45,970 nt of DNA. Source: Raillietiella orientalis (Eukaryota). The stretch covers positions 5,952,001 to 5,997,970 of the forward strand of contig JAYWIR010000006.1 of the NCBI GenBank assembly GCA_036172245.1, written 5' to 3'. The notes beneath the pieces were generated by a model, which had not been told where the DNA came from, searched no databases, and saw only the letters and a program-made list of their open reading frames with translations. Made by a program: the position numbers and the translations under genes. Of this stretch, positions 13,184 to 45,970 are shown piece by piece (positions within the stretch are counted from its first letter, which is position 1; each line of letters starts with the position of its first letter).

Positions 13184-13192
13184 TATCGTCTG

Positions 13193-14600: not shown

Positions 14601-14624
14601 TTTCCATCATCCATGAGCCGCCCA

Positions 14625-22800: not shown

Positions 22801-23642
22801 AATATGATTGCTAAGCCTCAGATCATACTTGCATGCAAAATGTATAAAAATATGAAACCTCATGTACTTATTCCTGAAAAGATTAGTTTGCTCAAAGGTG
22901 TTTCATATGTACAATTGTCAATTCATAAAAGATTATTTCATTTGGACTAGCTTATACCTGTTTTTATGTGTATGCCCACGCTTGCAGTCATGCATACCTC
23001 CATTCCAAAGTAAAGAAATACTCTGCTGCAGCAAATGATTTCCTGAAAACATGTATGGTCTAGTGGACAGTGGAAAAGAGATTCATGAAAACTGTGTTTT
23101 TCAGGACTGTGTAGTTTTTTATCGATGGTGCAGTTTTGTTTTCCTTGAAGAGCATAGGGATAATGATGGGCAGTTGTCGTTATGTATTTGAAGTATTGCA
23201 ATTGCCATACAGATTCATTCCATATTGTTTCTGTAAATTCTAATTTTCATGACTTTGTCTTCAGTTGTTGTTGGTATTTCCTTTTCATGTATTTTCCACC
23301 AATGTCCTTGGGAAAACTGTAAGCCTTCTACTGCTGATGAACTTTTCCAGCATTTGTTTTCCCCAACATTGTCGCCATAAAATGCCTTGTTAATTTTTGA
23401 TGTAATCTTCAGAGTATGAAAAATAATCTACTTTGGAGCATATGGAGCAAGTGATCACTACCTTTTGAAGCAAGATTACATACAATGTGGTATTTTTCTG
23501 GTACTAGGGTCTTTGTTATATATTTTCTGCATATGAGTTTACAAGCTTGAGTATGAAACTTGTATCACAATTTAGAAGCAACTTTCACTTCAAGGAAACA
23601 TCAGGATTTTTTTTTTTTTCGCACATAGTTTAGTTAGCACTT

Positions 23643-23706
23643 TTTCCAGTCATGGAGGCCATCGTTCTGGATCCTCCAGCATGATGATGGTTTCCATGAC
23701 TGGGAA
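23643..23706 (+). ncRNA. Candidate pre-miRNA-like hairpin 1
   Basis: TTTCCAGTCATGGAGGCCATCGT pairs with ATGATGGTTTCCATGACTGGGAA at all 23 positions (4 G:U), with an inner CTGGA/TCCAG stem. Confidence 0.3.
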
Positions 23707-23926
23707 ATAGAAGATGAATTCGTTGTCGTTTCTGTTAGCGGGACCATTGTTGGGCGTAACCTCCAACCATCCTGGCATCCTGGTAGTATCTCTAGTTCTG
23801 GAAGTGGCTTTTTTTTGTTGCTGTGCTCTCTAGGTATGTTATTATGCTGTCTTGTGCTGCAGAATCCTTCTCTAGGGAATTTCCTGTTGTTCGAGGCCTA
23901 GTTTACTGCTTTTAAATTTCTTTTTT

Positions 23927-23984
23927 ACACTGGTCTTGTATGAGCCTCCCTCTGATCACTGAGAGGTTCATGTGAGACTGGTGT
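23927..23984 (+). ncRNA. Candidate pre-miRNA-like hairpin 2
   Basis: 23927-23948 pairs with 23963-23984 at all 22 positions (16 Watson-Crick, 6 G:U), with a 14-nt loop. Confidence 0.3.
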
Positions 23985-26099
23985 TTCAGTGACCAGTGTA
24001 TTTACCTTAATGAACACTTCTAGAGTAATAGTTCCAGTCAAGGTGGCTCGTACATCAGCTTCTATGCTGCAATGAAGGTTTCTTTGTGAATTCAAGGAAA
24101 GTGACTAATGATTCTGAACAATCACCAGCTCATGAAGTAACCAGCATGATAAAATGGCACAGCGTACTAATTTTGTGGCAGCATGCTTGAATGCTTAGAG
24201 TAGACTTGTGTGTTTGGCTTCAGTGATCATAAGCTTTAGCAGTATATGGTTTCGCTAAAAAGTTTTTACATTCAGAGTGCACTCAATTGCTTGCTTTATT
24301 TATGTGACTTAGTGAAACTTCAGTTTGTAATGGCCAGTGATGCTTATGTGAATATTCGAGACTACCTTGATGCTTATCTTAAGCAAATCAAGCTAATTGT
24401 TTTATTGGTGGAGTTTGTTAACCTGATAAATGAGCTTGTTTACCAGATACTGATAATTAGGCTACGTATAACAAAGTAGGTATTTATTATTCGGAGATTA
24501 GTGTTTGTTTCGAAGTGTTGAGTGCTCAGAAGTGGAAAAGTGCATTTATTATAGTGAGTTCTTAGTGTTCGTTCACCTGATGGCTTGTGCGAGAGGACTG
24601 CAAAAGCATGATCACAGGAGAGCATTTTCTAACACACATCTGCATGACAAGATGCTTTCAGGCAACAGAGAGTTTATTGTTTCTTCATGAATTTCTCTGT
24701 ATTCTTTTGTGAGTACTGTTCGTAACGGTAAAACTTTACCGATGAAGGTGGTGGCAGTAAATCCAAGTATGATTTTGCAAAAGATACTGTTACGGAAGGT
24801 CATCGAGAAATTATGGAGTTTCTCCTCACTAAAGGGGTTAATGCAAGAACTTTTTTCATAAAGAAATATTACTAACAACCTGAACATGCGTTTCGTGATT
24901 TTGTGAGAAACCAATTCCAAAGTGTCCGTTTATACTAACTCAGTATCAGAGATCCAGTTCAAACCTAAAGAAGTTTTGTGGATCATTTGTAGGCATCAAG
25001 GTGACAGCTTGTTGGGTGTGTAGACTTTCATAGGACCTTGTTTCACACTCCCTACCATATTGATTTATGAGCGAGCGTACCGCTCTTGTAATGCGGTTGC
25101 AGCTCCTTTTGGTACACAAAGCGTGTCATTATTTCAGACAACCAGGTATTGGCTGCCGTGGCGCCATTGGTGGAGACATGTCTTGAATTCTATTTTGGAA
25201 TTCATTAGTAAGTTACTTTTGCTGCTTCAACAGCTGTAGCCTTGTTATGAAAGCTTGTTTCTGAAATCATTCCCATTCCACGTAAAAATCTCAAATGTCG
25301 CAAGCAGTGAAGTCGCACTTTTGTGAGACATTCGTTTAGGAATGCGAATTTGCAGTTTCCATTTCTTATTTAAAAGTACTAAAAAGTTAAAAAGCACTGA
25401 GCTAAGCATAAGAGATCATCGAAGTTTATCAACTTGTTCATCAGACGGCTGTCTGCATTAAAAATTTTATTCCTTGTAAAAACTCATATCCAGAGCACAT
25501 TTGTTATGGATGCTGGATACGATGTTACGTTGCATGAAGAAAGTCAGATTACGAAGAAATTTAACGTAGTTTGCAACGTAGTGCTTTTGCATTTACAAAT
25601 GCGCCTCGATTGTCCCACGAGCTTTTTACTGTTTGAAACTTAAGCTGTTCGCCAAACGAGATTTGGCTTTCCATTTACTCTGGGTTTAAGACTTGATGTG
25701 CACCGAATGTTTTCCCAGGAAGCCCTTGTGATACGAAGAGAGATGTTCCGTCGGTATTGAGGAGAGCAGGTGGGCAAAGGTAATTCTGTGAATACTTTCA
25801 CGACTACATCTGCTAAGCGAAATTAATCAGCAGCATTATGTAAGAAAGCACAGTTTGCAGCAAGCCTTGGGTTCACTGTGATTTCCACCCGGATAATCCC
25901 GGGGCGTTTATTAAAAAACATTCCACAAACCCCAGGCCAGGTACCAGGCCCCACTAACGGCCACACAACGCCGGACCTGCCGGGACGCCAAGACGCAGCC
26001 CGACGTGGCTCTCCTCGGCAGTGGAAGGGATGGGGGAGAAAACAAAAAGAAAAATAAAAAGTAAGGAAAACAAAAAGTTGGAGGGCTGGGAAGGGATCA

Positions 26100-29000
26100 T
26101 TATGCACTGGGAGGAGGGCCCATCCTTCGAAGGAAGCCCTTTAAGTCCATTCGAATTGTACCCAGCTGGGGCCATCCAGAAGCTCTCGTCAGGAACCGAA
26201 CAGCATACGGGATGACGTCCCTCTCGTTCTGGTTCACATCTTCGCGGGTATCACTCCACGCCGCCACGATGCCACGGATGCAGCATAATGCTGCCACGGC
26301 TGCGGCTGGCTGCAGGGCATCCCGCACGAACAGAAGTCGGAAAACGCCTCTGGGCGCGCTGCCCGTAGGGAGCCCTAAGGTCGTCCCAAACCGTTCCCAC
26401 AGAGGTCGGAGGGCAGCACAGTCAACAAGAAGATGGGGAGCGATTCCCGCTCCCCACACCGGGCACACTCAGGATTTACTCTCCCCCGGGTCCAGTGGAA
26501 GCAGCGCGCGTTGCAGGGCACACCCCAATGCAACGTCAGCAGCGCCGACTCTTGCCACTTGAGGGGGAGAATCCTGGATCCAATTAAAACCGGGGGCCAC
26601 TTCAGGTCATCCGTTGGCATGCCGAGCAGCTCGCTCCATCTTGCAAGTCCTCGCGGGAGGGCACTCGGGGTCGTGGCATCCACCAGTTCTCGCGTGGTCC
26701 AACCGTTTAACATTCTCTCGTCCTGAGTTCCGGCAGGAGACTTGCCACTTCGGCGTCCGGCCGCTGGTAAGGACCCTATACAGAAAGGGCAGCGCCGTAG
26801 CTAAAGGGGTGGTCTCCGCCCACATGCTTCTGGCGGGACACAGCAAAGTGGACCGCAGAGTGCAGCAGGCGTTACTGCCGAATCGCAGGCGGTTCCAGTT
26901 TTCATCTCTGGTGTTGTTCAGCTTTGCCCACGTTCCAACGGTTTCCTCCAACCAGGCGGAGGAGTTGGCGGGGCTGCATGCTATCCAACCGTTCTCTCTC
27001 ACCAGGGCTTCCATGCGTCCGAGGAGGAGGCCGCATCTTCTAACTTTCCGGCAGCGGCACAGAAGATAGGACGCGAGCCCTTGCGTCCTGGAAACACGGC
27101 TGGCAAGGAGGTGGGCCGGAACGCACCAAGGGGTGTTCCACAACTTCGCTGCGATGGCCAGGGTGCGCCATCGCAGCTGGATCTACAAGCGCTCCAGCGT
27201 CAGGAGGCTGAGACCGCCGTCCCGACGAGGAGAGCTTATGTCTTTCAAATTCATTCGGGGCCTTCCGCTGTCCCAGAGGGCGATGCAGAGTAGGTCTTTA
27301 GTACGTTTTTTCAACTGGGTGGGGACGGGGCAAACAAAAAGCAGGAGGCGGAGGATGGGAGCCGCGAACGCGTTCCACACCGCGGCTCGTTCCGGCAGAA
27401 GGAACTTGCCTTCCAGGAACGGGCCGATTGCCAACTCTACCTTTTGGAGACGACCTGACCAGGCTTCTGCGAGGCAGAAGTCCCCCAACGGGACACCCAG
27501 GTACTTCAGGTACCTGTCCGCGGGGATCCCCAAGCGGATCCAGTCAGGCCGTCCGACCCACGTCGCACCCACCGGTACGACCGACGACTTCGCCTCGTTT
27601 ACCCGAAGTCCAGTCCCACGACTTAGCAGGTCGAAGAAATCCTCGACTGCGGCTGCCGGGGCGGACATGGGAAACATGAGCAGAAGGTCGTCGGCGTATG
27701 CTGCTACGGCGGGCGTGCCGGGGCACGAGCTGGGCAGGGCAGCCAAAGTCACCCTGTACGCTCTCAGCACCAACTCAAAGTAGGTGCTAAAGAGCAGGGG
27801 ATTGAGGCTATCGCCCTGCCGTATGCCCCGCCGCACCGGCACGCCGTACACCTGTTGGCTGGGAAAGCAGATGTTAAGGATGGCGTTGCGCCAGCAGAAG
27901 CGCAGGAAGGAGAGAAGGGAGGGTGGGAAGCCCATGCGACCCAGGAGCTCCAACAGTAGCTCCTGGTCAACGCAGTCGAACGCCTTATGGAGATCGACCG
28001 CGATCGCTACGGCCCCCTTCCCAGACCGGGTGTCCATTCCCAGCCCAGCTGGCGGCCCCAAAGTGGGGTTGCCAATCTTTCCGCCAGTTTCATTTAGGCA
28101 GCGCTGCACATGGAACCATGTGCTCGCGAAGAACAGGTTGGCATCCATACTTCGTCCGGGAACAGCGTATGTCTGCTCCGGGCTAATTATGGAGTCTGCC
28201 ACCTGTCCTAGACGCGAAGCCCACAGTCCAGCGACCAGCTTGGCGTCCGTATTCACAATTGTGATCGGACGCCAGTTGCCTAGGGATCTCAGGCCTCCTC
28301 CCTTTGGGAGGAGCCTCACACGGGCTGACCGAAACGAGGCGGGAACGTCGCCTTCGTCTCGGATCAGCCCGGTCAACTGGAGCACCAGGGGGGCAGCTCT
28401 GTCGCGAAGCATTGAAAAAATTCCGTAGGCAGGCCGTCCTCCCCTGGCGCCTTACGCCTCTTGAGCCTTTTAATACCGGCGAGAATTTCACCGGTAGAAA
28501 AAGGCTCGTCGAGGCTGATCCTCTCCTCCTCCCCTATTGCCGGGGCTCCGTCCGGAAGCAGGAGTCGCGATGCGTCCCGCTCTGGGGGTGCCCTAGCGTA
28601 GAGGGAGGGATAGTAATGGCGCACGAGGTGCCTGATCGCAGGTGAGGCCGATGGCTCCCGGCCCTGGTCGTCCAGCAAGCTGGCCGACCCGGATTGCCAG
28701 GCTTGGCGCTCGGCCCCGGCTCGATATTCGGCCAGGCGACGGACATTGGGGGTCCTCTCGTACCGGCGGGCCTGTAAATAGGCCCTATGGTTCCGAGCCC
28801 CCTCCCCAAATCCGGGGAGCAGGCGGTGCAGGAGGAACTCCTCGCAGAACTCGCGGACCGAGGCCTTGAAGAGGTCCCAATCTTTGAGACTGCGGAGGGT
28901 GACGCCTCTCAGGAATTCGCGAAGGTGTTCCTTCGCAACTGAGAGCCGCGTCCAGTCCCCAGGCAACCGCCACGCCCTGGCCAGGGGTCCTTTATCGCGC

Positions 29001-29686
29001 GGGCATACCGCGGCGATTAACCTGGAATGGTCCGACAGCGTCGACGCAACTTTTCCCAGTTTGCCGACCCGCGAGCACAGGTCGACACCCAGGAAGAAGT
29101 GGTGGATGCTGCGGTCCATTCCCTCCGCGTCCGCCAACAAGTTGCGCGTGCGCATGGCAGCGCACAACTCGTTGGCCGTGCGTTCTTGTGCTTCGTGCTC
29201 ACCTGACAGCAGACGGAGATTAAAGTCCCCAGCTATCAGGTGTGCCTTCCGCACGTTCGTATCGGCCATCCAGTCGCGCTTCAGGGTTTCCAGCAACCTG
29301 GTACGGTCGCTGTATCCCCCTTTCCCGCTTGGGGCGTACACGTTCGTGACGATCAATTCGATCGAGGCGGACCAGCTGAGAGCCAGCTGACCGACCCGAC
29401 CGTCGTTATCGAAGCGTACGCCCTTCACGGCAGCGTCGATGGCCGGTTTCACGAAGAACGCGACCCCGCAAGTGTTGCGGAGGCCGCACCGCCAATACAG
29501 TCGACCCCCCGCGATCGCCTCGATCTCCTGGACGTCTGCCTAGGTGATCACGTGGATCTCCTGCAGCAGGGCCAGCTCGAGCTCACGCAGGGTGTCGGCC
29601 GTATCTCGCCTGTTACCGTCGTCGCGCAGCCCGTTGACGTTCCAACAGGCGGCCCGAATCCGACGGCGACTGGCGAGACCAGGTGT
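26100..29686 (-). pseudogene. Copy A ORF2: APE endonuclease, reverse transcriptase and zinc finger
   Basis: Motifs WNVNGL, LQEIH, NVYAP, AGDFN, SDH, KAPGEDG, WRPI, DLHKAFD, RQGDSL, YADD, KYLG and CPVW/CGE..PHL..C. Stop near 29540 and several frameshifts. Confidence 0.92.
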
Positions 29687-31437
29687 TACTCCTGGGAAGA
29701 TGGCGATGCGGCGTCCGCCACCTGTTGGGGCGGGACGCTAGGTGGAGGAGGAGGGTCAGGTGCTGCGTGCACCTGGTCCCCCTCCCCCATGGGTAACGGC
29801 GCGTCGAGCGGGTCACCCTCAGGTGGGGTCGCGCCTACCTGTTGGCCCTCCTCCATTGGGGTGGGCTGTTCAGGCTCGGCGACTGCAGGGAGGACTTCGC
29901 CCTCCTGCTCACCCTCCTCCATGGGGGTGGCCGGCTCGACGGCTTCCGAGCGTGGGAGTTTCCCTCCGGGATTCCCACGCTACCGCTAGCTTCCTGCTTC
30001 TCCTCCTCGCTCGTGGAGGGGAGGCGCCTCCTCGGCTTTTGGGACTTGCGTCCCGACTTCCTGGGGGTGCCTCCGAGGAGGAGGATGCACTTCCGGCCCC
30101 CAGGTCCGACTCACCTGTGGGGGCCTTTTTCGCGGGAGCCGGCCTTCGCACGGCCTTGCGTGAGGGGTTCTCACGCTCCGCCAGCGTGGCCGCGAGCTCC
30201 TCCGCCGCCTTTGGGAACGCGGCGTCCTCGGTTTCCACCGGCGCGTCGCGCGGCTCACCCTCTGTTTGCACAGAGGGTTCGCCGTCACGAACTTCGGGCG
30301 CGACGGAAACGGCGAGGGGAGGCTCGTCGCCCCGGGTGGCATCTTCCGGAACGACGATCCGTTCCAGTGCCACCGTGAACTCGCGTACGGTTTTCGAACG
30401 TGGTCCGGTTTTTTTTTCCTTACCGGCCGGCTTCTCTTCTTTTTTAAAGGAGCTTTTCTCTCTTTTCTGGCTGCTACAAGTTGCCATCCCTCTTCACCTT
30501 CCGCCTCTTGGTTAGTTTTATCCTCCGCCTGCTTTTGTTTGCAAGTCCTTTCTTTTGGAGTTTGAGGATCTGGCAACCTCAGCCGGCCAGCGTCCGCCTT
30601 AGGTCTTGTGACCTTTAGTGCGCGTTTCCCCTGCGCCTTTTTCGCGGCAGGAGGAACCGGGGTGGGGCGTTTTGGGCACACACGTCGAACGTGGCCCTCC
30701 TCCCCGCACATGTGGCATTGGATGTTAGGACACCTCTTGCGAAGGTGTCCTACGGTATCGCAGTAGCCGCAATACCGGGGCTTTCCCACGTACCAGGGGT
30801 CCACGCTCTCTTGCGCGACCTCCAGCTTGTGGGGGAGCCCACAGTCCTTATTCACGGTTACCCGCGCTGCAGCCTGGCCTCCGAAATGGCTATTGAAGCC
30901 TTTGAAGATTGTTGGCTTAGGCCATAGCGTGTGCACCTCGCCGAACTTCTGTAGTTCTTGTGCTACCGCAGAGCGAGTCATACGGTTCGTTATTCCAGTG
31001 AGATGGACCACTACGGAGCGGTCCATCGTCACCGGCAAGATCTTGCGGCCGTCGACGTTCAACGGGTTGGTGATTAGAGTCTGAGCCAAGGTGATCTGCT
31101 TGCACACCACCTCGACTCGCTGACCTCCGCTGAGAACGGACAAACCGTCTAGATCTTGTTCGTTTACTCCGGCGTTTTGCAGCGCTTTCGAAAACGCGCG
31201 TGCCGTTTTTCCATCAAATAAGGGGCCTACCTGGTATACCAAGCTGGGCTTGTACCCAGCTGCCCGGTAGGCCGCCATCTCCGTTACGGTTTCCGCGCTC
31301 GGCGCGGCCACCATGGCGCTCCAGCTCCTCGCCTTGGGCGGCAAGGGCGATTCCGGGGCGGACGCCCCTGATTCTGTAGGCTGTGGAGGTGGGCAAGCCT
31401 CCCCCACACCTACCTCCATCGTGGTGTCCTCAGGCAT
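29686..31437 (-). pseudogene. Copy A ORF1: gag-like nucleic-acid-binding protein with two CCHC knuckles
   Basis: Reads CGYCDTVGHLRKRC and CHMCGEEGHVRRVC. The start (GCGATGCCTGA) is conserved with copies C and G. Frameshifts near 30420 and 29985. Confidence 0.88.
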
Positions 31438-31533
31438 CGCTGACATCGGACACCAACGATGTTCCACACGAACACACACAAAGTGAAAAGCGCTTTCTGT
31501 CGACTCACTCGGGAGCGAAGAAGAAACACGTCC

Positions 31534-34436
31534 TTCCGTAACGAAAGAGCGTCCTTGTATGGCCGTCGTTACGCGAGGACCCCCAATGTCCGTCGCCTGG
31601 CAGAGTACCGAGCCGGGGCCGAACGTCAAGCCTGGCAATCCGGATCGGCCAGCTTGCTGGACGACCAGGTCCGGGAGCACTCGGCTCCGGCTAGAATACG
31701 GCACCTCGTACGGCGTTTTTATTCCTCCCTTTACGCCAGGGCGCTCCCGGACCAAGATACATCTCGGTGCTTGCTTCCGAACGGTGCCCCGGCAATAGGG
31801 GAGGAGGAGAAGGAAAGCCTCGACGAGCATTTTACCACCGGCGAAATTCTCGCCGGTATCAAAAGGCTCAAGAGGCGGAAAGCACCAGGGGAGGACGGCC
31901 TGCCTGCGGAGTTTTTTCAATGCTTCGCGGCAGAGTTGGCACCCCTGGTGCTCCAGTTGACCGGGCTGATCCGAGACGAAGGCGACGTTCCCGCCTCGTT
32001 TCGGTCAGCCAGAGTGAGGCTCGTTCCGAAAGGAGGAGACCTCAGGAAACTCATCAACTGGCGTCCGATCACAATTGTGAACACGGACGCCAAGTTGATC
32101 GCCGGACTGTGGACTTCGCTTCTGGGGCAGGTGGCCAATTCCATAATTAGCCCGGAGCAGACTTACGCTGTTCCCGGGCGAAGTATGGAGGCCAACCTCT
32201 TCTTCGCGAGCACATGGTTTCATGTGCAGAGTAGTGAAGAAAAGGAAGAAGGAAGGATTGGCAGCCCCGCTTTGGGGGCGTCAGCCGGGCAGGGACAGGA
32301 CTCCCAGGTGGGGAAGGGAGCCCTAGCGATCGCAGTCGATCTGCACAAAGCGTTTGACTGCTTGGACCAGGATCTCCTGCTGGAGCTCCTGGGACGCATG
32401 GGCTTCCCTCCCTCCCTACTGACCTACCTGCGCTCTTGCTGGCGCAGCGCGCTGATCAATATCTCTTTCAGAGGTCAAATGGCGTACGGCGTGCCGGTAC
32501 GGCGGGGCATACGGCAGGGCGACAGCCTCAGTCCCCTGCTCTTTAGCACCTACTTTGAGTTGGTGCTGAGAGCGTACAGGGTGACTTTGGCCCCCTTGCC
32601 GAGCTCGTGCCCCGGCACGCCCGCCGTAGCATCATACGCCGACGATCTTTTGCTTCTGTTGCCGATGTCAACCCCGGCGAAGGCGGTCGGGGATTTCTTC
32701 GATCTGCTTAGCCGCGTGACCGGACTTACGGTGAACAGGGCGTAGTCGACGGTGGTTCCAGTCGGTGCGGCTTGGGCTGGGCAGCAGGACTGGGTCCGCT
32801 TGGGGATCCCCACGGCGAGGTGCTTGAAGTACCTTGGTGTGCCGTTGGGGGACTACTCCCCTGCGGAAGCGTGGTCTGGCTGCCTCCAAAAAGTGGAAAC
32901 GGCGATCGGCCCGTTCTTGGAAGACAAGTTTCTCCTTCCGGAACAAGCCGCGGTATGGAACGCGTTCGCGGCTCCTATCCTCCGCCCCCTGCTTTTTGTT
33001 TGCCCCGTCCCCAGAGAGTTGAAAAAACGGACTAAGGACCTCCTGAGAATTGCCCTTTGGGGAAGAGGGAGGCCTCGATTCCCGTTGAAGGACTTGTGTG
33101 CTCCACGTCGGGATGGCGGTCTCGGCCTCTTGACGATGGAGCGAGTAGAGATTCAGCTGCGGTTGCGAACCCTCGCCATCGCAGCGAAGGTATGGAGCAC
33201 TTCTTGGTGCGTCCCGGCCCGACTCCTTGCCAGCCGTGTATCCGGAACGGAGGGTCTCGCGTCCTATCTTCTCTGCCGTGGCAGGAAGATCAAGAGATGC
33301 GGAGTTCTCCTGGGACGCATGGCAACTCTGGCTAAGGAAAACGGCTGGATGGTATGCAGCCCCGCCAACTCCTCCGCATGGCTGGAGGAGACAGCTGGCA
33401 CGTAAGCGAAGAATAATGAAAAAAATGAATAGATATGGAACTGCCTGCGACGCGGCGCCTGTTCCTGCTGCACTCTGCGGAAGATACTCCAGTGTCCCGC
33501 GAGGAGCACGTGGGCAGAGACAACCCCCCTAGCTACGGCGATGCCCTTCCTGAGGAGGGCGCTCTCCAGCAGCCGCAAGCCTAGGTGGCAAGTCTCCTGC
33601 CGCGTCGCAGGCAAGGAGAAGTTGATCAGCGGCTGGTCCACGGGTGAACTGCGAAAGGCAGTACCCCTAGTGTCCAGCCGAGAAGACTTCAGAGATAGGG
33701 CGATCTACTCGGCATACAGCCGGATGACCTGAAGTGGCCCCCGGTATTAATTGGATCTAGGATCCTCCCCCTGCAGTGGCAGGAGTCGGCGCTTCTGTTG
33801 TTGCATTGGGGTCTACCCTGCAACGCGCGCCGCCACCACTGGACCAGGGGTCGAGTAGATCCTACCTGCAACAGGTGTGCGGAACGGGAAACTCTCCCCC
33901 ACCTCCTTGTTGATTGTGCTGCCCTCCGATCCCTGTGGGAACGTCTTCGTCCCTCCCTACGGATCCAGGAGGGCAGCCAGCCCAGAGACGTTTTTCGGCT
34001 TCTGTGCGTGCATGATGCCCTGCGTCCAGCCGCTACCCTGGCTGCACTTTGCTGCGTACGCGGGATTGTGACGTGCTGGAGCAACGTCGGAAGACCGAGC
34101 CACGACAGGGATGCCGTCGTACTTGCAGTCCGCTACCTGCGGATTGTGACCAGATGGCCCCACCTGGGTATTGTACGGACGGACCTCGAGGGCATCCTAA
34201 GGAGGATGGACCCTCCTCCCAGTGGTCAGTGATCCCTCCCTAACCCTCCCAAATTTTTTTTTGTTTTGATGTTTTATTTTTCTTTTTGTTTTTTCTTCCA
34301 CCCCCTTCCGCTGCCGAGGAGAGTCGCGCCGGTCTGCGTAACGGCGACCCGGCAGGTCCAGTTGAGTTGGCCGTAGTGGGGCCTCGTACCACGAATCAAA
34401 GAGAATTTTTAATAAACGCCCCGGCGTGACCGGGTG
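31534..34436 (+). mobile_element. Copy B: 5'-truncated Tx1-like element (ORF2 from RNERA to the 3' end)
   Basis: RT motifs WRPI, KAFD, QGDSL, YADD and KYLG; zinc finger; stops at 32743 and 33403; terminus AATAAACGCCCCGGCGTGACCGGGTG. Confidence 0.93.
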
Positions 34437-37400
34437 GCAACTATCAACTTGTAATCCGCATGCACTATTGTGATGGGACGCCAGTTGTTAATGCTCCTCA
34501 GATCTCCTCCCTTAGGGAGAAGCCGCACAATTTGCCGAACGAAACGAGGCAGGAACGTTACCTTTTTCGCGTATCAGCAAGATGAGTTGATGTACCAGGG
34601 GGGTTAGCTCAGGCGCGAAAGTTTGATAAAACTCCGTTCACGGGCCGTCCTCCCCTGAAGCCTTGCGCCTCTTGAGCTTTCCGATGGCCGAGATGATCTC
34701 GCCCATCGTGAAAGGCTCGTCAAGGGGCTTTTTCTCCTCTTCCCCGATCCCACGACCGCCTTCCGGAAGCAGGAGTCGTGAGAAATCCCGCTCGGCAGGC
34801 GTTCTTGCGTACAGTGAGGAGTAAAAACGTCGCAGCAGACCGCGAATCTGAGCGGGTGTTGAATGCTCCTGGCCCTGATCTCCCAAGAAGCTGGCCGATC
34901 CTGACTGCCAGGCTTGCCTCTCGGCTCCCGCTTTGTATTCCAGGAGCCTGCGGATGTCGGGGGTCCTGGCGTAACGGCGAGCATGCAGATAGGCTCGTTC
35001 GTTACGTACCCCGTCCCCAAATTCCGCAGGTAGGCGGTGTAGAGGGAACTGGTCGCAGAACTCCTGAACCGACCGTTTGAAGCTGTCCCATTCCTGGAGT
35101 GTCTGCATCCTGAAGCTCCGTATAAATGTGTTGAGATGTTCCGTGGCGCCCGAGAGCTTCAGACAGTCCCCTGGCAAACGCCACGCTGACGAGGGGGGCC
35201 CCTGTCGCGCGGATGGATTTCAATCACGATTGGTCGATGGTCGGACAACTCGTACGGTAACTTCCAGCGCTTGCCCACACGAGTGCACAGGTGCTCGTGA
35301 AGGAATACGTGATCGAGGTTGTCCTCCATCCCTGGTACACTGCCAACAAATTGCAAGTGTGCACCGCCATGCACACCTCGTTGACCAAGTCCCGCTCGTA
35401 ATTCGGCCCATCCGGTTTCAGACCAGCGTTAAAATCGCCCGCAACCAGATGGGCATTCCGCACGCCTGCCTCGGTCAACCAGTCGCCTAGGGGGGCAAGG
35501 AAAAATTCTTTCCTGGCCCTCCTGTTCGTCAGGTCTTCTCCGCTCGGGGCGTAAACGTTCGTGACGATCAGGTCGATCGAGTCGGACCAACTGAGATTCA
35601 GCGGTCTGACACGACCGTGATCGTCGAACCGCACTCCACGGGCAGCGGCCTCGATGGCGTGCCTATGCAGGTAGGCGACACCACAACTTCTCGATGTTCC
35701 ACACCGATACCACAGCCGCCCTCCTGAGATGCGTTCGATTTCCTGCGCTTGTTCTGCAGAGATCACATGGATCTCCTGCAGCAGCACAAGGTCAAACGAT
35801 CCTAGAATGGCGGCCATGTCTCGTCTCCTCCCGGCGTCTGTCATGCCTTTCACGTTTCAAACGGCGATGCGCAGACGATGGCGGGAGGAGATACACGGCA
35901 TTACTGCCGGGAAGATGACGGTGTGGGGGAACCCGTCTCTTCCGAGGCGGGTGAGATGACCATTAGGGTTTCGGACTCCTCGGGCACTTTGGGTACCTTT
36001 CCGGCTTCAACCCTCTCCATCTCCTCCGTGTCTGTGCGTGGTGGTCTCTCGGGTGACGATTCCCGGGATTCTCCCACGCTCATTGCACCCTCGCATTGGG
36101 AAGTGAACACCACGCCTTCGACCTGGAGAGGGGCTTTCCGGGGTTTGCTGGACTTCCTTCCAGCCTTCCGGCTGGGTGCCGCGGAGATGGAAACTTGGTT
36201 TCCGGCCTGCGCTTCGGGGTCGGAAGTTACCGACTCCTCGGTGGAGGCCGGACGCCTCACTGCCTTTTTGCCAGCCTTGGAGGATTCTGGCTGCAACGAT
36301 GCAGCCAGCTTCTCCGCCGCACGCTCGAAGGCGGCGTCATCGATCACGGTCTCGATGACGGACGCTTCCGCCGGTTCGCTCCCCATGCTGTTGACATTTT
36401 CAACAGTTGGTTGCTCGTCGGTAGCAGCCATTTCTACCTTGCGGCGTTCGGCGGAGACGCGTTCCACGACGACGCTGCATTCTTTTAAATTCTCGCTAAC
36501 CTGCTGTTTTTTATTTTGGTAGGCGAGCTTTTCTTCAATTCCTCGTTCTTTCTTCGACTTTTTCTTTTTCGCTGTAGCTTCTTGCCATTCCGACACCTGA
36601 CCGCTTTTGTCGATCTTTTCGGCATTCGTTACCGGGGTGTCGGCTGACGCCTGGACCACGGGAGTGGGTGGCACAGCTTGAGCGGCAGCCTTCGCCGCCA
36701 GTTTTTTCTGTAGCAGCCGCGCGCGTTTTTTGAGGTTCCTCGCGGAAACCACGCGCACAGCCGATTGTGGACACACTTCCTTCGTGTGAGCCATTGTCCA
36801 GCATACCAGGCACTGTACGTTGGGGCACCTCCTTTTGAGGTGTCCCGACGTGTTGCAGAAGCCACAGTATTTGGGCTTCCCACGTAGCAGTGGTCGACGC
36901 TTTCTCCGCCGACCACCAGTTTGTGGGGAAGGGTAGAGCCCTTCCGAACGGTTACACGGGCAGCCGTGAGGCCGCTCTGAACTGTGGTATAGTCCTCGAA
37001 AGGACTAGGCTTGTTCCATACTGCATGGACCGTGCGTTCTTTTCCCAACGCGGCGCTTAACTGTTCTTTCCGCATCCGCGCGGTAACTCCTAAAAGGTGG
37101 ACCACCATACTGTGGTCCGCCGTAACGGGAAGGAGCCTGCGTGTCCCCATTACCACGGGGGTTTTAAGCAGACGTTGGGCCAGATCTGCATGTTTGCAGA
37201 TTACCTCTACGTACTGCCCCCCGCTACGAATGGTCATAGCGCAGAGCTCCTCCTCTTTAACATCGAGAGCGCGCATCCCCTTCGAAAAGGCGCGCGTACT
37301 CTCAGAAGAATACAAATTTCCTACCTTGTAGAATAGTGCTGGGTTATACCCCTCTTCCACATAGGCAGATAATTCCGCCGCGGCTGCAGGCGATGGCGCC

Positions 37401-37708
37401 GACACGACGGCGCTCCACGCCCGCGCTGCAGCGGGGACCGGTTTTGTGGGGGCGGACGCCCCCACCTCCTTCGCCACTGAAGGCGACGTTGCCGCCGCCT
37501 CCTGGCACTCCACCTTCTCTAGAGGCGACGTTGCCGCCTCCACCTGGCACTCCATTTCTTCAGGAGGCGACGTTGCCACCGCCCTTGACTCGTACCGGTG
37601 GTCGCGTCAGGCATTGCTGCCTGATCTACCACCACCACAAACGAAGCCTACACCTAGGGACGTTTCCCGGCACGAGGAGCACCGAGGAAACACGTCCGCT
37701 CTAGCCGA
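34437..37708 (-). mobile_element. Copy C: 5' part of a Tx1-like element (ORF1 37614-35901; ORF2 from 35901, cut after WRPITIVHADYKLIVA)
   Basis: Leader GGACGTGTTTCCTCGG, CCHC knuckles (frameshifted), TAATG junction, endonuclease motifs LQEIH/NVYAP/AGDFN/SDH. Confidence 0.92.
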
Positions 37709-39850
37709 CGTAAAGCGTTCGACTACGTCGACTAGGAGCTCCTTCTGGAGGTCCTGGAACGCTTGGGATTTCCGGCCGTCTTCCTAGCCTACCTGCGCTC
37801 CTGCTGGTGCTTCGCGCTCATGAAGATCAATTTCAGCGGCCGGCACGTGTTCAACGTGCCGGTTCGTCGTTGCATCCGGCAGGGTGACAGCCTCAGCCCC
37901 CCGCTCTTCAGCATCTACTTTGAGTTGGTGCAGAGAGCATACAGGGAGACTTTGGCAACTCTGCCGAGCTCGTTTCCCGGCACGCCTCCCGTGTCGGCCT
38001 ATGCCGACGATCTTCTGCTCCTGCTTCCCGGGTCCACCCCGGCATCGGCGCTCGAGGATTTCTTCGAGTTGCTATACCGTGGGACAGGCCTCCAGGTAAA
38101 CAGGACGAAGTGGTCGTTGCTTCTCACCGACTCGACGAGGGCCGGACGGTCGCACTGGATCCGCTTGGGGATCACCACGGGCCGGTACATCAAGTACCTT
38201 GGCGTTCCATTGGGGGACTTCTGCTCTGCAGAAGCCTGGTCCGACCGTCTACAAAAAGTGGAGCTGGCGATCGGCCCGTTCCGGGACGGCAAGGTTCAAT
38301 TGCAGGAACGGGCCACGGTATGGAACGCTTTCACGACCCCCCTCCTTCGCCCCTTTCTTTTTGTGTGCCCTATCCCGTACCAATTCAGGACACGGACTAG
38401 GGGCCTTATACAGAAAGCCCTCTGGGGCAACCGGAGGCCCCGCGTCCGGCTCAAAGACTTTGGCGCTCCACGCAGGGACGGTGGACTTGGTCTACTGACG
38501 TTGGAGAGCATGGAGCGACAGCTCCAATTCAGAAAACTTGCCCTTGTGGCAAAGTTTTGGACAGCACCCTGGTGAGCACCGGCAGGACTCCTTGCTCACA
38601 GGGCAACCGGTTGCTTCGGATTGACTTCAATCCTGGTAGCCAACGAACGCAGCCTAAACCATTGTGGTTATCAGCAGCGGGATTTGTTCTCCCTTCTGAG
38701 AGACAACCCTTGGATCTTCTGCATCCCAGCGAACTGGAGTACCTGGCTTCAGAAGTCCGTTTCCGCATGGGCGAAGATCAATGGCACCAGCGATGAGAAC
38801 TTCTCCTGCCTCCGCAGAGGGAGGCACGCTGGTCAACCACTCCAGGAGATCGTTTACAGCCCAGGGAAACTTCTGTGGGCTTCCTTCACCCCCTTGCCTC
38901 AGTGCTGCGCTCCCTCAGGGAAGTTCGGGACAGCTACCAACAGGCATCGTGGGAAGTGTCCTGTCTCATCGGAAGCAGGAAAAAATCACTGAAGGCGTGG
39001 ACGCCGAGGGAACTAGCGGACGCTAGTACCCCGAGTGTACCGCCGTACGGACTTTTACGCTGGGGCGCGCTGCTCGGTATACCTCCGGAGGAGGTGAAGT
39101 GGCCCCCAGCGTCATGGGACAACGGTACCCTTCCCCTGCAGTGGCAGGAGACGGCGTTGCTTCTGCTCCACTTGGGACTTTTAAGCAGAGCACGCCTATC
39201 TCACTGGACAACGGGGAATGTGGATGCTAGTTGTGCAGAGTGCGAGGAAAGGGAGACCATCCCTCACTTGATTCTGGAGTGTGTTGCCCTCCGCAAAATG
39301 TGGGACAGAATCTCGTAGTTTCTCAGCATTCCGGAGGGTGACCCAAAAAATTTATTCAGACGCCTACTGACGCGAGACGGCTTGCCAGCCTCCGGGAGTG
39401 TAGCAGTGCTCTGCTGCATACGCGGTATCCTGGAGAAGTGGACCGCGTCTAGGAGAGGAAGGACCAGCCGGAATGCCATCCACTGGGCAGCGATCTACTT
39501 GGAGAAAGCGTGCCGTTGCGCCGACTTCAAAAACATTTGCCGGCACTTGTTCGCATCCGAAACCGGATGCTAAGACCTGCACACGGCGCACCGTGATCCC
39601 CTCCCTCCCTCCCCCTCCTTAAAAACATTTCCCTCCAGGCGTTTTTTTTTTTTGTTTTGTTTTCTGTTTATTTTCCCCGTCCAGGCGCCAGTGAAGGACT
39701 TCATCGGCCTACGGGTCGAAAAAGACAAGTGCTACGGAACTTCAATGAACGTCTGACGTCCGAAAAAGAAAAATTTTAAAAACATCGACCTTATTACAAA
39801 ATTTTGTGATGTCAAAATTTTAGTAATAAAAGCCCCGGCTTACCCGGGTG
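37709..39850 (+). mobile_element. Copy D: 5'-truncated divergent Tx1-like element (from RKAFD to the 3' end)
   Basis: Motifs QGDSL, YADD, KYLG and CAECEERETIPHLILEC; distinct 3' UTR; terminus AATAAAAGCCCCGGCTTACCCGGGTG. Confidence 0.92.
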
Positions 39851-39869
39851 AAAAACCTGCGCCAATGCC

Positions 39870-42470
39870 GCACGCGTTTTTGGTCAGCTCCCGTGAGCGA
39901 CGCCAAAACTAGGTGTTGTGTGGATTTCAAGTGCGGCCGTTGGAAGGCAGAAATGCCTTAAGACGCCGCAGTAACTGCGTCGGGAGACGTGAGACCCACG
40001 TCTCCCCAACCTATGAAAGTGGGGTCATGGCCCACCACAAAATTAGCACCCGCCACCCTGGCGAGGGCGTGGAACAAGGTGACCGCGGCTGCTCCGCCGG
40101 ACGTGGCCGCCGAAGTGCAGGCCTACATAAAGGAGGGCTTCATCCCTGCCCTCCTTTACAAGGTAGGAAACCTATATTCTCCGCTTACAACGCGGAAATT
40201 TGGAAACGCCATCCGTAGGATGGGAATCTCTGACTAGGAGATACTTTGCTTCTCGATTCAGAGCGGCGGGCAGTTCGCGGAGCTGATCTGCGGAGATGCA
40301 GCGCTCACACACAAACTGCTCTGCACAACCGTTCCGTTCGAAGGGCGGAATCTCCTCCCACACACGGTGGATCACTCTATGGTGGTCCATCTCACGGGTA
40401 CAACGGTGCGGATGACCGATGAAGCCATCCGCACTGAAATCAACAAGTTCGCGGAGATATACGCGATGTGGTCAAAGCCCGACGCCTTTACTTATCGAGG
40501 CGCATTCAGTGGGCGAGTGGCTGCACGCGTAACTCTCCGCGAAAACAAAGAACTTCCCCACAAGCTTGAAGTCAACGACGAGCTCGTCGACCTCTGGCAC
40601 GTGGGGAAGGAAAAATACTGTGGGCTGTGCAACACATTCGGGCATCTTAAAAAGAGATGCCCGGATGCCACATGCCCAACCTGCGGAGCGAAGGGCCACA
40701 CTAGTGCTGTGTGCCCGAAAACCGCCGCGACAACGCCTTCTGCCCCTTCGACAAACGAGGGGAAGAAGGCAAAATTTAAAGCAAAGAGCGATGGAAAGCC
40801 GACTTCAGAAGAAGTCGTGCACAAGGAGCAGGAGCCTCAAAAGGAGACTTCTGATACAAATGCCGACGAGGTAGGCTGGAAAATCGTCTCCGGCAAAAAA
40901 CCCAAACAAATTAAAAACTAAACAAAAAAATTCCCCACAAAAAACTCAAAAAATCAGAACGCGAGCGTTTCGAAAAAACCCGCGGTCGGCAAACCAAAAA
41001 TTCCGCGGCGCGAGTGCATAAAGGAATGCCGCGTTACAATCGAGCGCGTTCCGTCGATCGAGCGTCGATCGGCGAACGCGACTCCCGCAACCGTCGCGAA
41101 CGCCGCCGAACCGCCGCAGGAATCCTGCGACAAACACGCGAGCAGCAGCGACGAGAAAAACTTCGCGAAGGCGGCGGAGGAACTCGCGGCCACTTTAATG
41201 CAGCCGCCTAAGGCTGCAAAGAAGGCCGTCAGACGTCCGGCGGAAGTTAAGGGCTTGGAAACTTCCGGGTCCGAGGCGGAAACCGGGAACCCTCCCTCCG
41301 TCGCCCTTCCGAAGAGGAAGGCGGTCCGGAAGTCGCGCAACCCTATGCGCGTCGCTCCCCCTCAGGCTGAGGAGGAGGAGATGCGCTCGGATAGCGAGGA
41401 GGCGATGTCCGCGAGGTCGCGGGATCCCTCCATCGACAGCATCCGGTCGGTCCTTCCTATCGACCTCAGTCCGGCTGCAGACGTTCCGGTCGTTGCCGAA
41501 ACGCCACCACCGCAGATGGACAACGACCAGCCGCCTCCCGAACAGGAGGCGGCAATACACACGCCACCACCATCACTAGTATGATGCGTGGAATCGCCTC
41601 TTGCATGCAGCTGCGTATAGCCTGTTGGAGTGCCAACGGGCTGCGTAGCGAAAGCAAGAGGCTTAGCGTGGCCGACAACCTGCGACCTTTCGATCTGGCA
41701 CTTCTTGAAGAGGTGCATGCCCTCAGAGCAGAGGACGTCCAGGAAATCGAGAGGCTCACAGGGGGGAGGCTACTTTGGCGTGGTGGAGGAGACCACTCCC
41801 GCGGAGTGGCCTTTCTGCTGAAGACGGCCGTCGCCAATGCGGTGCGCAGTGCACAGTTCGACGAGGAAGGTCGAGTAGGACAACTTGTCCTTAAGTGTTC
41901 CGAATCGATCGACCTCGTAGTCACGAACCTGTACGTGCCCTGCACCAGCCACAGTCGCGCAGAACGCACTGCGTTCTTCGAAGCCCTGCGGCGAGACTGG
42001 CTGGCCGGAGCAGGCGTGCGGCGGGCGCATCTGATAGCGGGAGACTTCAACGTCCGCCTGCTGTCGGAAGCGCCCGACATACAAGCACAATTGGGCAACG
42101 AGTTATGTGCGGCTATGAACACACGCAACTTGTTGGCCGATGAAGCCGGAGCGAGAAGCAGAATCGACCACGTGTTCCTCGATAACCACTTGTGTACGCG
42201 GGTGGGGACTCAAGGAGCAAATGCGTCGGAGCTGTCCGATCACCCTAGGCTAGTGATCAACATTCACCCGCGCGACAGAGGTCCACCCTCCGAAGCGTGG
42301 CGCCTGCCGGGGGACTGGTTGCGACTCGCTGGAGCGCGCGAACATCTGCGCGCATTCCTGCGTAGTTGCGAACTGCAGACTCTCGCTGACTGGGACAAAA
42401 TAAAACGCTCAGTCCGAGACTTCTGTGACCAGTTTCCCCTCCATCAACTTCCTCCAGGTTTGGGCGATGC
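39870..42470 (+). mobile_element. Copy E: 5' part of a Tx1-like element (ORF1 39953-41584 disrupted; ORF2 endonuclease 41584-42470)
   Basis: Reads CGLCNTFGHLKKRC and CPTCGAKGHTSAVC; TGATG junction; LEEVH, NLYVP, AGDFN, SRIDH, SDH; cut after GLGDA. Confidence 0.92.
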
Positions 42471-44583
42471 CACCCGGATACGCCGGGACGTTTATTAAAA
42501 ACATTTCAACGGTCAATACAGAACGTGATACAAGGCCCCACTGACGGCCAAGTAATACCGGAACTGCCGGGACACCGGGACGCAGCCCGGTGTGGCTCTC
42601 CACGGTATTGGAGGGGGATGGGGGAGAAAACGAAAATAAAATAAAAGAGAAAAACAAGGCACAAAAAAGAGTTTGGAGGGCCGGGAAGGGATCACAGAAG
42701 ACTGCTGGGAGCGCCCATCCTTTGCAGGATGCCTTCTTGTTCCATTTTCAGTTTTCCTAGATTGGGCCATCGGGTAGCTCTCTGTAGGAAGCGAGAAGCA
42801 TACTCGATGACGTCCCTCACGATGCAGTCTTCATCTTCGGCATCACTCCAGGCCGCCAAGATACCACGAATGCAGCAAAGTGCTGCCAGGGCTGCGGCTG
42901 GACTGAGGGCGTCCCGTACGAAGACAAGACTGAAGACACATCCAACATTGCTACCATCCGGTATCCGGAGAACCGTTTTCAGACGATCCCATAGAATCTG
43001 GACGGTAGGGCATTCAACTAAGAGGTAGGGGAACGACTCCCGCTCCCCACACCTGGCACACGCAGGATTTACTCTTCCCCGCGTCCTGTGGAAACGGCGC
43101 TCGTTGCAGGGTAGATCCCAATGCAGCCACAGAAGCGCCGATTCTTGCTACTTCAGAAGAAGAATCCTGGATCCAAGCGGAAACGGGCGCCACTTCAGGT
43201 CATCCAATCGAATTCCGAGCAGCTCGCTCCATCTTCTTAATCCACGCGGCTGGAGAGTAGGGGTCGTTGCATCTGTCAACTCTCCCATGGTCCAGCCGCT
43301 CATCAACTTCTCTCTGCCTGCGATACGGCAGCAGACTTGCCACCTAGGCTTCCGGCTTTCGTGAAGCGCCCTTTGGAGGAAGGGCATCGCCGTAACAAGG
43401 GGTGTGCCTTCCGCCCACGTGCAACTCGGTAGAAATTCAAGAATTTCACGGAGAGTTCGGCGGGCGTAAAAGCCGACTCGCAGGCAGTTCATCCGGTCTT
43501 CGCACCTGTGGTTCTGCTTGGCCCAGGTGCCAGCAGTCTCTTCCAGCCAAGCGGAGGAGTTGGCAGGGCCACAAACCATCCAGTCGTTCTCCTTTGTTTG
43601 GGTTGCCATGCGGCCGAGCAGTAGACCGCATCTTCGAATCTTCCGGCCAGGGCACAGAAGAAACGATGCGAGTCCTTCGCGGCATGACACACGCCTGGCC
43701 AGGAGGCGGGCCGGAATGCACCAAGCGGTGCTTCACATCTTCGCTGCGATGGCGAGGGTCCGCCATCGCAGCTGGATTTCCACGCGCTCCAGCGTCAGGA
43801 TGCTGAGACCGCCGTCCCGACGCGGAGCGCACAAGTCCTTCAAAGGGACTCGGGGCCTCCCCTTGCCCCAAAGAGCTATGCGGAGGAGGTCCTTCGTCCT
43901 CTTCTTCGATTCCACGGGGGCGGGGCCAACAAATAGCAAGGGGCGGAGGATGGAGGCCGCGAAGGCGTTCCAAACCGCGGCCCGTTCCGGCAAGTGAAAC
44001 TTGCCTTCCAGGAACGGGCGATCGCCGTCTCGACTTTTTGGAGGCTGCTGGACCACGATTCCGCAGGAGATAATTCCTCCAACGGCACACCAAGGTACTT
44101 AAAGCACCTCGCCGTGGGGATCCCCAGACGGACCCAGTCCTGCTGCCCTGCCCACGCCGCACCCATTGGCACAACCGACGACTTCGCCCTGTTAACCTGC
44201 AGTCCGGTCCCGCGGCTGAGCAGATCGAAGAAGTCTCCGACCGCCTTTGCCGGGGTGGACATTGGCAACAAGAGCAGAAGATCGTCGGCGTACGCTGCTA
44301 CGGCGGGCGTGCCGGGCTACGAGCTCGGCAATGGGGCCAAGGTCACCCTGTACGCTCGCAGCACCAGCTCAAAGTAGGTGCTGAAGAGCAGGGTGCTGAG
44401 GCTATCTCCCTGCCTTATGCCCCGCCGCACCGGCACGCTATACACCTTGTGTCCACTGAAAGAGACGGTAATCATCGCATTCCGCCAGCAAGAGCGCAGG
44501 TAGGAAATCAGGGAGGGTGGGAAGCCCATGCGAACCAGGAGCTTCAAGAGGAGTTCCTGGTCTACACAGTCGAATGCCTTGCG
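42471..44583 (-). mobile_element. Copy F: 5'-truncated Tx1-like element (from RKAFD to the 3' end)
   Basis: Motifs QGDSL, YADD and KYLG; B-like C-terminus; terminus AATAAACGTCCCGGCGTATCCGGGTG. Confidence 0.92.
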
Positions 44584-45970
44584 TGCTGCAGGGTGGACGT
44601 GTTTTCTCGGTGCTCCTCGTGCGAGGAAGTCTCCCCCAGTGCAAGCGTCGTATGGTTCGGTGGTCGATCAGGCAGCGATGCCTGACGCGACCACCAGGGA
44701 TGGCCAGGGGGCAGCGGCAACGCCGCCCCCAGAGGCGATGGAGAGCCAGGGGGCGGCGGCAACGTCGCCCTCGAAGGCGATGGAGGTGGGGGCATCCGCC
44801 CCCACAGAATCGGTCCCCGCTGCAGCGCGGGCGTGGAGCGGCGTTGTGTCGGCGCCATCGCCTGCAGCCGCGGCGAAATTGTCGGCCTATGTAGAGGACG
44901 GGTACAACCCCTCATTATTCTACAAGGTAGGCAATTTATATTCTTTAGAAAGTGCGGGCGCCTTCTCGAAGGGCATGCGTGCTCTCGATGTGAAAGAGGA
45001 GGAGCTCAGCGCTATGACCATCCGCAGAGGAAGTCAGTACGTTGAGGTGATCTGCAAACAAGCAGAGCTGGCACAGCGACGGCTTAAAACCCCCTTGGTG
45101 ATGGGGACGCGCAGGCTCCTCCCTATTATGGCGGACCGCAGCATGGTGGTCCACCTGTTAAGTGTTACCGCGCGGATGCGCAAGGAACAGGTTCGCGCCG
45201 CGTTGGAGAAATACGGAACGGTCCACGCGCAGTGGACGAAAGTTAGTCCTTTCGAAGACTACACGGGGCTGCAACACGGCCTCACTGCTGCGCGCGTGAC
45301 CGTTCGAGGGGGCTGCACTCTTCCCCACAAACTGGTGGTCGAAGGCGAAACCGTCGACCTCTGGTATGTGGGGAAGCCGAAATACTGTGGCTTCTGCAAT
45401 GCGTCGGGCCTCCTCAAAAAGAGGTGTCCCAATGTGCAGTGCCAAGTATGCGGCACAATGGGCCGCACGAAGGAGGTGTGCCCAAAAGCAGCAGTGCGGG
45501 TGGTTTCCAAGAGAAACCTTAAAAAACGCGCCCGGCTTCTGCAGAAAAGGCTGGCGGCAAAAGCTGCCGCGAAGGCTGTTCCAACCGCGCCCAAGACCCA
45601 GGCCGCACCCGAGACCCCGGCGACCAGCGCCGAAAAAGTTGAGGGAGCCGGCCAGGAGACTGGGTGGCAAGTGGCAACGGCCAAAAAAACAAAGAAGGAG
45701 AGGAGGATGGAAAAGAAAATCGCCTACCAACAGAAGAAGAATGAGCAGGGAAGAGCGATAATTAAAGAGTGCAGCGTCGTTGTCGAACGCGTTCTCGCTC
45801 CCCTCTGTTGACACTGTCAATAGCGAGGGGAGCGAGCCGGCGGCGGCGTCCGTCATCGACACCACCATCGATGACGTAGCCTTCGCGCGAGCCGCGGAGG
45901 AGCTGGTAGCTTCGTTGCAGCCAGAACCCTCCAAGGCTGGCAAGAAGGCCGTAAGGCGTCCGGCCTCCCC
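44584..45970 (+). mobile_element. Copy G: 5' end and ORF1 (ATG 44678) of a Tx1-like element, continuing beyond the window
   Basis: Leader GGACGTGTTTTCTCGG. ORF1 closely resembles copy C; the knuckle histidines are substituted (CGFCNASGLLKKRC, CQVCGTMGRTKEVC). Frameshift near 45800. Confidence 0.9.

Follow-up and report, generated by a model that had tools for sequence, protein, structure and literature searches.

Head-to-head junctions at a shared reverse transcriptase codon in a LINE cluster of Raillietiella orientalis

We analyzed a 45,970-nucleotide (nt) stretch of the Raillietiella orientalis genome (assembly GCA_036172245.1, contig JAYWIR010000006.1, positions 5,952,001–5,997,970, forward strand), called the window throughout, in which complete 5′ ends of members of one long interspersed nuclear element (LINE) family are joined twice, head to head and across 11 nt, to the same codon of the reverse transcriptase (RT) gene of a relative. 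From 25.9 to 46 kb the window is 56–63% GC and wholly made of seven colinear pieces, A to G, of a single LINE family that carries an apurinic/apyrimidinic endonuclease (APE), while the surroundings are AT-rich (33–45% GC). The pieces were delimited by self-blastn, by blastn against the full-length copy A and by tblastn with the reading frames of A. Together with the spacers at the head-to-head junctions, they are laid out as follows:

25883–31533, minus strand: element A, full length, with leader (31524–31533), first open reading frame (ORF1) with a zinc knuckle, APE, RT and a 3′ stem–loop (3′ motif at 25885–25892); Pfam RVT_1, Exo_endo_phos and zf-CCHC
31534–31536: A–B spacer of 3 nt, TTC, after which the homology of B to C reaches CGTAAC at 31537
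31537–34440, plus strand: element B, 5′-truncated, starting from CGTAAC in the linker between APE and RT (site w), with a complete 3′ end
34441–37697, minus strand: element C, with leader, 5′ untranslated region (UTR), ORF1, APE and the N-terminus of RT
37698–37708: C–D spacer of 11 nt, GCTCTAGCCGA on the plus strand
37709 to about 39855, plus strand: element D, from the Arg codon of RKAFD in RT to a 3′ stem–loop (39843–39851) and a short A tail
39870–42468, plus strand: element E, with a full 5′ end, the variant leader GCACGCGTTTTT, ORF1 and APE, ending in the APE–RT linker
42469–44583, minus strand: element F, of the A/B subfamily, starting at the RKAFD Arg codon and reaching a complete 3′ end
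44584–44594: F–G spacer of 11 nt, TGCTGCAGGGT on the plus strand
44595–45970 and beyond, plus strand: element G, of C's subfamily, with leader, 5′ UTR and open ORF1, continuing past the window end

The cluster is best explained as a nest of at least three subfamilies of one APE-type LINE family, namely A/B/F, C/G (D probably included) and E. The features of this class are all present: an RT domain, an APE domain N-terminal to it, no long terminal repeats, and a 3′ end shared by 5′-truncated copies. RVT_1 lies above the curated Pfam cutoff in A (E = 6.7e-20), B (2.7e-17) and D (1.8e-09), as does Exo_endo_phos in E (3e-11) and C (6.5e-10); the Exo_endo_phos match in A is weak and below cutoff (0.0026), and the zinc-knuckle matches in ORF1 are likewise weak and below the Pfam cutoff. 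Four copies end in AATAAA-CCCGG-loop-CCGGGTG(G), followed by at most a few A's and no long poly(A), and three pieces (B, D and F) are 5′-truncated. The 3′ end of A adjoins unique AT-rich DNA, and its left flank is without tandem repeats. B starts 807 nt upstream of its own His codon at 32344. C stops 242 nt before the codon that opens R/H-KAFD, has no 3′ end of its own, and has the 3′ end of B attached at that point; E ends in ...GGCGAT, 6 nt upstream of the homologous start of B, with the 3′ end of F attached. D represents a divergent subfamily; its 3′ UTR is AT-rich, and it carries a zf-RVT domain (a weak, below-cutoff Pfam match at the C-terminus). Lesions (stops and frameshifts) occur at ∼1–2 per kb in all copies and do not sort them by relative age.

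At both the C–D and the F–G junction the exact 10-nt leader GGACGTGTTT stands 11 nt from the Arg codon of RKAFD, a position that we call site z (leader 37688–37697 and codon 37709; leader 44595–44604 and codon 44583). On the plus strand, the C–D junction presents the C leader as its reverse complement, AAACACGTCC, and D opens with CGT AAA GCG TTC GAC, while at the F–G junction the GTC GAA TGC CTT GCG of F ends at 44583 and is followed by the leader of G. Read along their own strands, D and F both open with CGY AAR GCN TTC GAC. A first reading of the window, made from its letters alone (the sequence-only reading), had described both breaks as falling at one Arg codon with 11-nt spacing, and on direct reading this is exact to the nucleotide. 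The leader 10-mer by itself is unremarkable, with three exact occurrences in the window (the two junction leaders and 31524–31533 on the minus strand) and five sites at up to one mismatch against 2.97 expected; its context is remarkable. The homology to RT breaks off abruptly at this codon: in a by-eye positional reading of the four sequences, the 11 nt directly upstream in D and F match the AVDL codons of A and B at 0–1 of 11 positions. On this count the possibility that the spacers are AVDL codons was ruled out. The chance that two independent 5′ truncations of an element of ∼5.6 kb fall at the same nucleotide is of the order of 1/5000, spacer equality aside, and the shared breakpoint exceeds chance.

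The two spacers are equal in length, and 4 of their 11 positions are alike. The 8-mers of the C–D spacer do not recur in the window save for one chance-level match (31688, minus strand), and those of the F–G spacer, which are CTGCAG-rich, recur many times, as GC-rich DNA would give. A single blastn high-scoring segment pair (36243–38514 against 45968–43779, 2280 nt, 74.8% identity) passes through both junctions; it reflects conservation of the family on each side rather than common ancestry of the junction.

The pieces on either side of the two junctions were compared with each other and with the remaining copies. C and G are identical at 1090 of 1363 aligned nt (80%), while D and F agree at 637 of 899 positions (71%) in the first 900 columns and at 620 of 1199 (52%) beyond, the 3′ UTR included; past 900 nt D and F are unalignable and their 3′ UTRs differ. 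The description of C and G as close relatives, and of D and F as markedly different down to their 3′ UTRs, is borne out by these figures. Nei–Gojobori estimates with bootstrap gave a ratio of nonsynonymous to synonymous divergence (dN/dS) of 0.27 (0.19–0.38) for D versus F over 265 codons, with a synonymous divergence (dS) of 0.81, and of 0.23 (0.17–0.33) for C versus G over 375 ORF1 codons, with a dS of 0.63; differences between C and G fall at codon positions 1, 2 and 3 in 54, 44 and 131 cases. The sequence-only reading had proposed this comparison and had taken neutral, equal divergence of both pairs as the mark of one duplicated junction, and what we find is purifying selection on both. 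Both sides diverged mainly as functioning elements under purifying selection rather than as dead DNA, and the non-neutral ratios argue against post-duplication decay of a single junction. Over its first 900 nt F is 84% identical to B, 80% to A and 71% to D, and it groups with A and B, neither of which is truncated at the RT codon, leaving D as the outgroup. There is no rise in identity between D and F close to the break, where the first 150 nt give 0.67 for D and F, 0.77 for A and F and 0.78 for B and F. D and F are thus not sister copies, and these comparisons show that the C–D and F–G junctions are of independent origin.

A third head-to-head junction lies between A and B (31524–31545), where the exact leader of A is followed by TTC and then by the CGTAAC of B in the APE–RT linker. 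The truncated partners in all three head-to-head junctions open with CGYAA (CGTAAC in B, CGTAAA in D and CGCAAG in F). A and B, which are intact at site z, have CAY in place of CGY there; in two intact relatives, P0001 and P0018, both reading AVDLRKAFD, Arg (CGY) is native. The linker site w (GAYGGGGTACGTAAC) is interrupted in two elements, E being cut after ...GGC GAT (42455–42477) and B starting from CGT AAC (31537). These two points are 6 nt apart in intact C, which reads GAC-GGGGTA-CGTAAC across the site, and they resemble the two ends, left (3′) and right (5′), that antisense insertion with loss of 6 nt of target would leave, in two different targets. ATC follows five of the seven recognisable 3′ ends (A, B, F and old copies near 6964 and 5350), so that the primer strand would end in ...GAT, and the RT motif upstream of site z reads GTC GAT, then CTN, then CGY. 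The combined pattern GAT(N2-7)CGYAA has no occurrence in the seven pieces on either strand. All five element-in-element adjacencies (F in E, G in F, C in D, B in C and A in B) are antisense, and each of the three invading elements with a visible 5′ end is full length. Breaks recur twice at z (D and F) and twice at w (E and B), always in antisense orientation, in a sample of only 2 + 2.

That joins at the same codon formed independently suggests that the elements favour a site inside each other. We put at roughly even chances the reading that full-length elements insert antisense, by target-primed reverse transcription, at recurrent sequence-defined sites in resident relatives. In such an insertion, the RT gene of a resident relative would carry, joined via 11 nt to its antisense strand, a complete C/G-type 5′ end, with the join point immediately 5′ of the Arg codon, between AVDL and RKAFD. 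The first nick would fall on the sense strand of the target after GAT, here the catalytic Asp codon in GTC-GAT, and the second strand would be primed from the 3′ end of the antisense strand, ...TTRCG, just before CGY-AAR, with loss of the 3–6 target nt between the two nicks. The site GTC-GAT-CTN-CGY-AAR would then have been struck twice by C/G-type elements, once in a D-type and once in an A/B-type target, and linker site w would have been struck by A and by F. We infer insertion rather than a join between two cDNAs, as well as the nick positions and the origin of the 11-nt spacer. The equal spacer length may be a coincidence or may go back to a 5′ extension inherited in the C/G lineage rather than to fresh filler, and an inherited extension would account for the equal length. 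The probability of the 4/11 matches is 0.13 at the ∼58% synonymous identity of C and G and 0.008–0.002 at 75–80% overall identity; with synonymous identity at ∼58%, they are compatible with neutral divergence between C and G.

The sequence-only reading had proposed independent, nucleotide-precise insertions of one subfamily next to the Asp motif. Its independence is upheld here, while its limitation to one subfamily and one site gives way to the linker site and the A–B junction. For the junctions beside the catalytic Asp, insertion at a specific site is the reading that we favour. A further proposal, possible though doubtful, is that the family recognises short antisense motifs in the coding sequence of relatives, such as the RT catalytic-Asp block GTC-GAT-CTN-CGY-AAR, and that new full-length copies thereby land in and inactivate resident or competing elements. 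If true, such targeting would serve at once as a 'safe haven' strategy and as competition among elements, and variants that have lost the motif, such as those with CAY for CGY in A and B, would escape.

Several observations weigh against site-directed antisense insertion. The second half of each target is not seen in the window (G exits it and C is cut by B), and the predicted other half, an ...AVD joined to the 3′ end of the invading element, is absent from it. To the left of A lies unique AT-rich DNA rather than the predicted remainders B′, C′ and D′, and because these left remainders are missing the nested model needs one insertion-associated deletion of several kb; such deletions have been described for L1 (10.1101/2024.12.14.628481). 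D begins only 242 nt beyond the point where C ends, and each stands at a similar distance from A (63% and 65% amino acid identity), a pattern that is also expected from a 5′ inversion by twin priming on a single RNA. The specificity is not strict, the 3′ junction of B in C lying at a third position (z−243), and occupancy of the sites falls short of near-universal, with the 3′ end of A in unique DNA, that of B at z−243 and that of D 14–18 nt before the leader of E. The GAT and CGYAA motifs were spotted post hoc from 3–7 junctions, and the evidence comes from one window, with no replicate copies outside it. At 80% likeness, sequencing run X1, which covers 0.11 of the sampled words, has no listed piece or joint at 37697/37709 or 44583/44595, and among the matches listed it places only short diverged contigs of the family on the window.

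The leading alternative is that the junctions are cDNA–cDNA joins made by a two-RNA version of twin priming, in which two target-primed cDNAs started from nicks on opposite strands and one, full-length, was joined to the unfinished other; the cDNA that reached the leader would gain a few nt, and the breakpoints would be recurrent stops or RNA breaks just 5′ of CGYAA. We consider this unlikely, though it deserves serious weight. All three head-to-head junctions combine a complete 5′ end with a truncated copy via 3–11 nt of filler, the 3′ ends of A and B are flanked by unique DNA and by C, as in a dimer with outward tails, and C and D sum to one element less 242 nt. Template jumping and non-templated addition are reported for non-LTR RTs (PMC8857657), and twin-priming intermediates and rearrangements for L1 (10.1101/2024.12.14.628481), all of which count in its favour. 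However, such joining gives no reason why D and F, from two subfamilies, should stop at the same nucleotide, nor why B should stop 6 nt from the DNA nick that primes F in E. Reading the sequence by eye showed neither a stable structure nor a block of G-quadruplex type immediately upstream of z or w, and this reading would need the same boundary between host DNA and C to have served twice. If the junctions did arise in this way, the CGYAA stop would indicate a defined RNA break or a block to RT. Twin priming on a single RNA, with C plus D and G plus F each being one element with an inverted 5′ part, belongs to a known class of L1 products, the 5′-inverted insertions (PMC2912911, PMC2837659), and would fit the 242-nt shortfall between C and D and their similar distance from A. 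It is very unlikely here: G is of C type (80% to C), whereas F falls in the A/B clade (84% to B and 71% to D, the 3′ parts of D and F being at 52%), so that at most one of the two pairs could come from a single RNA, barring recombination between subfamilies, and the identical breakpoint and spacer length would be left unexplained in two events.

A single junction that was duplicated, either by inverted segmental duplication or as a retrotransposed bidirectional composite, and then decayed would account for the gapless repeat pair and the 2280-nt alignment (74.8%) that span both junctions and for the two 11-nt spacers. We give this the smallest share of probability, the dN/dS values of 0.27 and 0.23 having upper bootstrap bounds of 0.38 and 0.33, D and F not being mutual closest relatives, their 3′ halves being unalignable, and their identity next to the break (0.67) lying below that of A or B with F. 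The alternative raised in the sequence-only reading, a bidirectional composite that moved as a unit, is rejected on the same grounds, D and F not being sisters and their divergence being non-neutral. Chimeric assembly joins between repeat copies could be feared in so dense a repeat cluster, where the only sequencing run found covers 0.11 of the sampled words, yet mis-joins are expected within shared homology, not as precise joins of a terminus to a codon via unique 11-nt spacers. The pattern also occurs twice with different flanking subfamilies, and the pieces are otherwise colinear with the full-length copy; an artefact is in our judgement highly improbable.

Site-specific APE-type LINEs include R1 in 28S ribosomal DNA (rDNA), TRAS and SART in telomeric repeats and Tx1L in the Tx1D transposon, and known cases of LINEs with sequence specificity concern rDNA, telomeres, microsatellites and one DNA transposon. 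Like R1, TRAS/SART and Tx1L, the elements described here would have inserted independently at one nucleotide in a constant orientation, with full-length, precise 5′ ends, and the 6 nt at w would correspond to the small offset between nicks of such elements. In contrast, the present elements would target coding sequence of their own family (in RT, the catalytic motif; further, the APE–RT linker) in antisense, at least three positions are involved and one 3′ end lies in unique DNA, which makes this a preference rather than a strict specificity, and the window contains no complete insertion with both junctions. The cluster also resembles Zepp of the trebouxiophyte algae Chlorella and Coccomyxa, a GC-rich LINE (61% GC) that forms nested clusters and a GC peak (PMC3446292, PMC11005252), in that GC-rich nested LINEs stand out as a GC peak from the surrounding genome. 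The likeness drawn here is one of cluster architecture. The host DNA here is AT-rich (33–45% GC), and the passages on Zepp nesting describe it without a nucleotide-precise recurrent site or an antisense rule (PMC3446292, PMC11005252).

Head-to-head 5′ and 3′ segments with filler or microhomology are shared with L1 twin priming, and the deletions that L1 can mediate could account for the missing left halves (PMC2837659, 10.1101/2024.12.14.628481). Twin priming of L1 uses one RNA and leaves scattered breakpoints, whereas here F and G come from separate subfamilies and the break recurs at exactly one nucleotide. Extra nt between a complete 5′ end and upstream DNA are also reported among the template jumps and 5′ additions of R2-type elements (PMC8857657, PMC8594491). 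Unlike random addition of that kind, the present spacers are equal at 11 nt in two events, and an extension inherited by C and G is equally likely.

We found no account of a recurrent antisense junction between a leader and an RT codon in the open-access literature, which is not proof of its absence in print. If site-directed insertion holds, the use of a related LINE's catalytic motif as insertion target would be an added case of transposon-against-transposon targeting, and would explain how GC-rich LINE islands resembling Zepp clusters grow in a compact AT-rich genome while genes are spared. The site would also offer a short, testable DNA target (GAT...CGYAA), both for an APE-type endonuclease and for the joining of 5′ ends, of all steps in target-primed reverse transcription the one least understood.

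Searches beyond the window returned few relatives. A scan of metagenomes with the leader pattern gave 42 loci, and since none of the 42 is homologous to the window by blastn, these matches are due to chance. Searches of genome_contigs and viral_contigs with the RT protein yielded 108 and 5 pattern matches, respectively, and no relative. A protein search with the 422-amino-acid RT gave 17 matches, of which P0001 (68%) is the sole close one, and a search with the 116-amino-acid reading frame that spans the junction of F gave one match from 12 candidates, an intact RT fragment without the junction. The protein databases searched thus hold just two close RT fragments, both intact. A low-depth contig of run X1 (43899/37667) links, via 26 other letters, a position in the RT region that lies ∼680 nt downstream of the recurrent codon with one 30 nt within a C-type leader, and may be an internally deleted derivative of the family.

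Other features of the family were noted in the window. A 5′-UTR hairpin, AGGCAGCGATGCCT, is kept in all four of the full-length 5′ ends in the window, with five nearly invariant pairs, at the following positions:

44670–44683: hairpin in G
37609–37622: hairpin in C
31432–31445: hairpin in A
39945–39958: hairpin in E

No Rfam family reached its gathering score in the window, and nothing relevant appeared at E ≤ 10 in 44400–45000. A self-cleaving ribozyme like that of hepatitis delta virus (HDV) at the leader is unsupported, having no Rfam match, though minimal HDV-like folds can escape Rfam models. Penelope-like elements are known for inverted upstream copies; such an identity was rejected, as the endonuclease is Exo_endo_phos (APE) and the Pfam search gave no GIY-YIG match. 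The idea that E and B are one split element was also discarded, B being ∼80% identical to A and E ∼65% at the nucleotide level and 37–55% at the amino acid level. Between D and E, the 3′ end of D and the variant leader of E stand head to tail with a gap of 14–18 nt (39856–39869), and this linker carries CTGCG 8 nt before the E leader, a word similar to the TTRCG found ahead of the three remaining leaders.

Positions 1–17000 hold at least eight old, degraded, 5′-truncated fragments of the same LINE family on both strands, some of them tail to tail, with examples at:

4887–5252: old fragment
5781–6975: old fragment
6908–7936: old fragment
10049–10447: old fragment
14656–15371: old fragment

The 5′ boundaries of these old copies (1–17 kb) are too eroded to place, hence they give no control for CGYAA. 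Directly after the 3′ stem–loop, A (25876–25884, minus strand) and one unrelated old copy (6964–6972, plus strand) share the identical 9 nt AAATCACAG, which may represent a tail of the subfamily or else a preferred target word common to both (ending in CTGTGAT). The AT-rich DNA at 20000–25000 has a strong positive GC skew (+0.09 to +0.12) and a negative AT skew, with neither tandem repeats nor a match to the LINE family found there. On the plus strand at 13049–13702, an open frame with a partial match to Oxidored_q6 (NADH-ubiquinone oxidoreductase 20 kDa) and one tetratricopeptide (TPR) repeat may be a host exon or an organelle-derived fragment.

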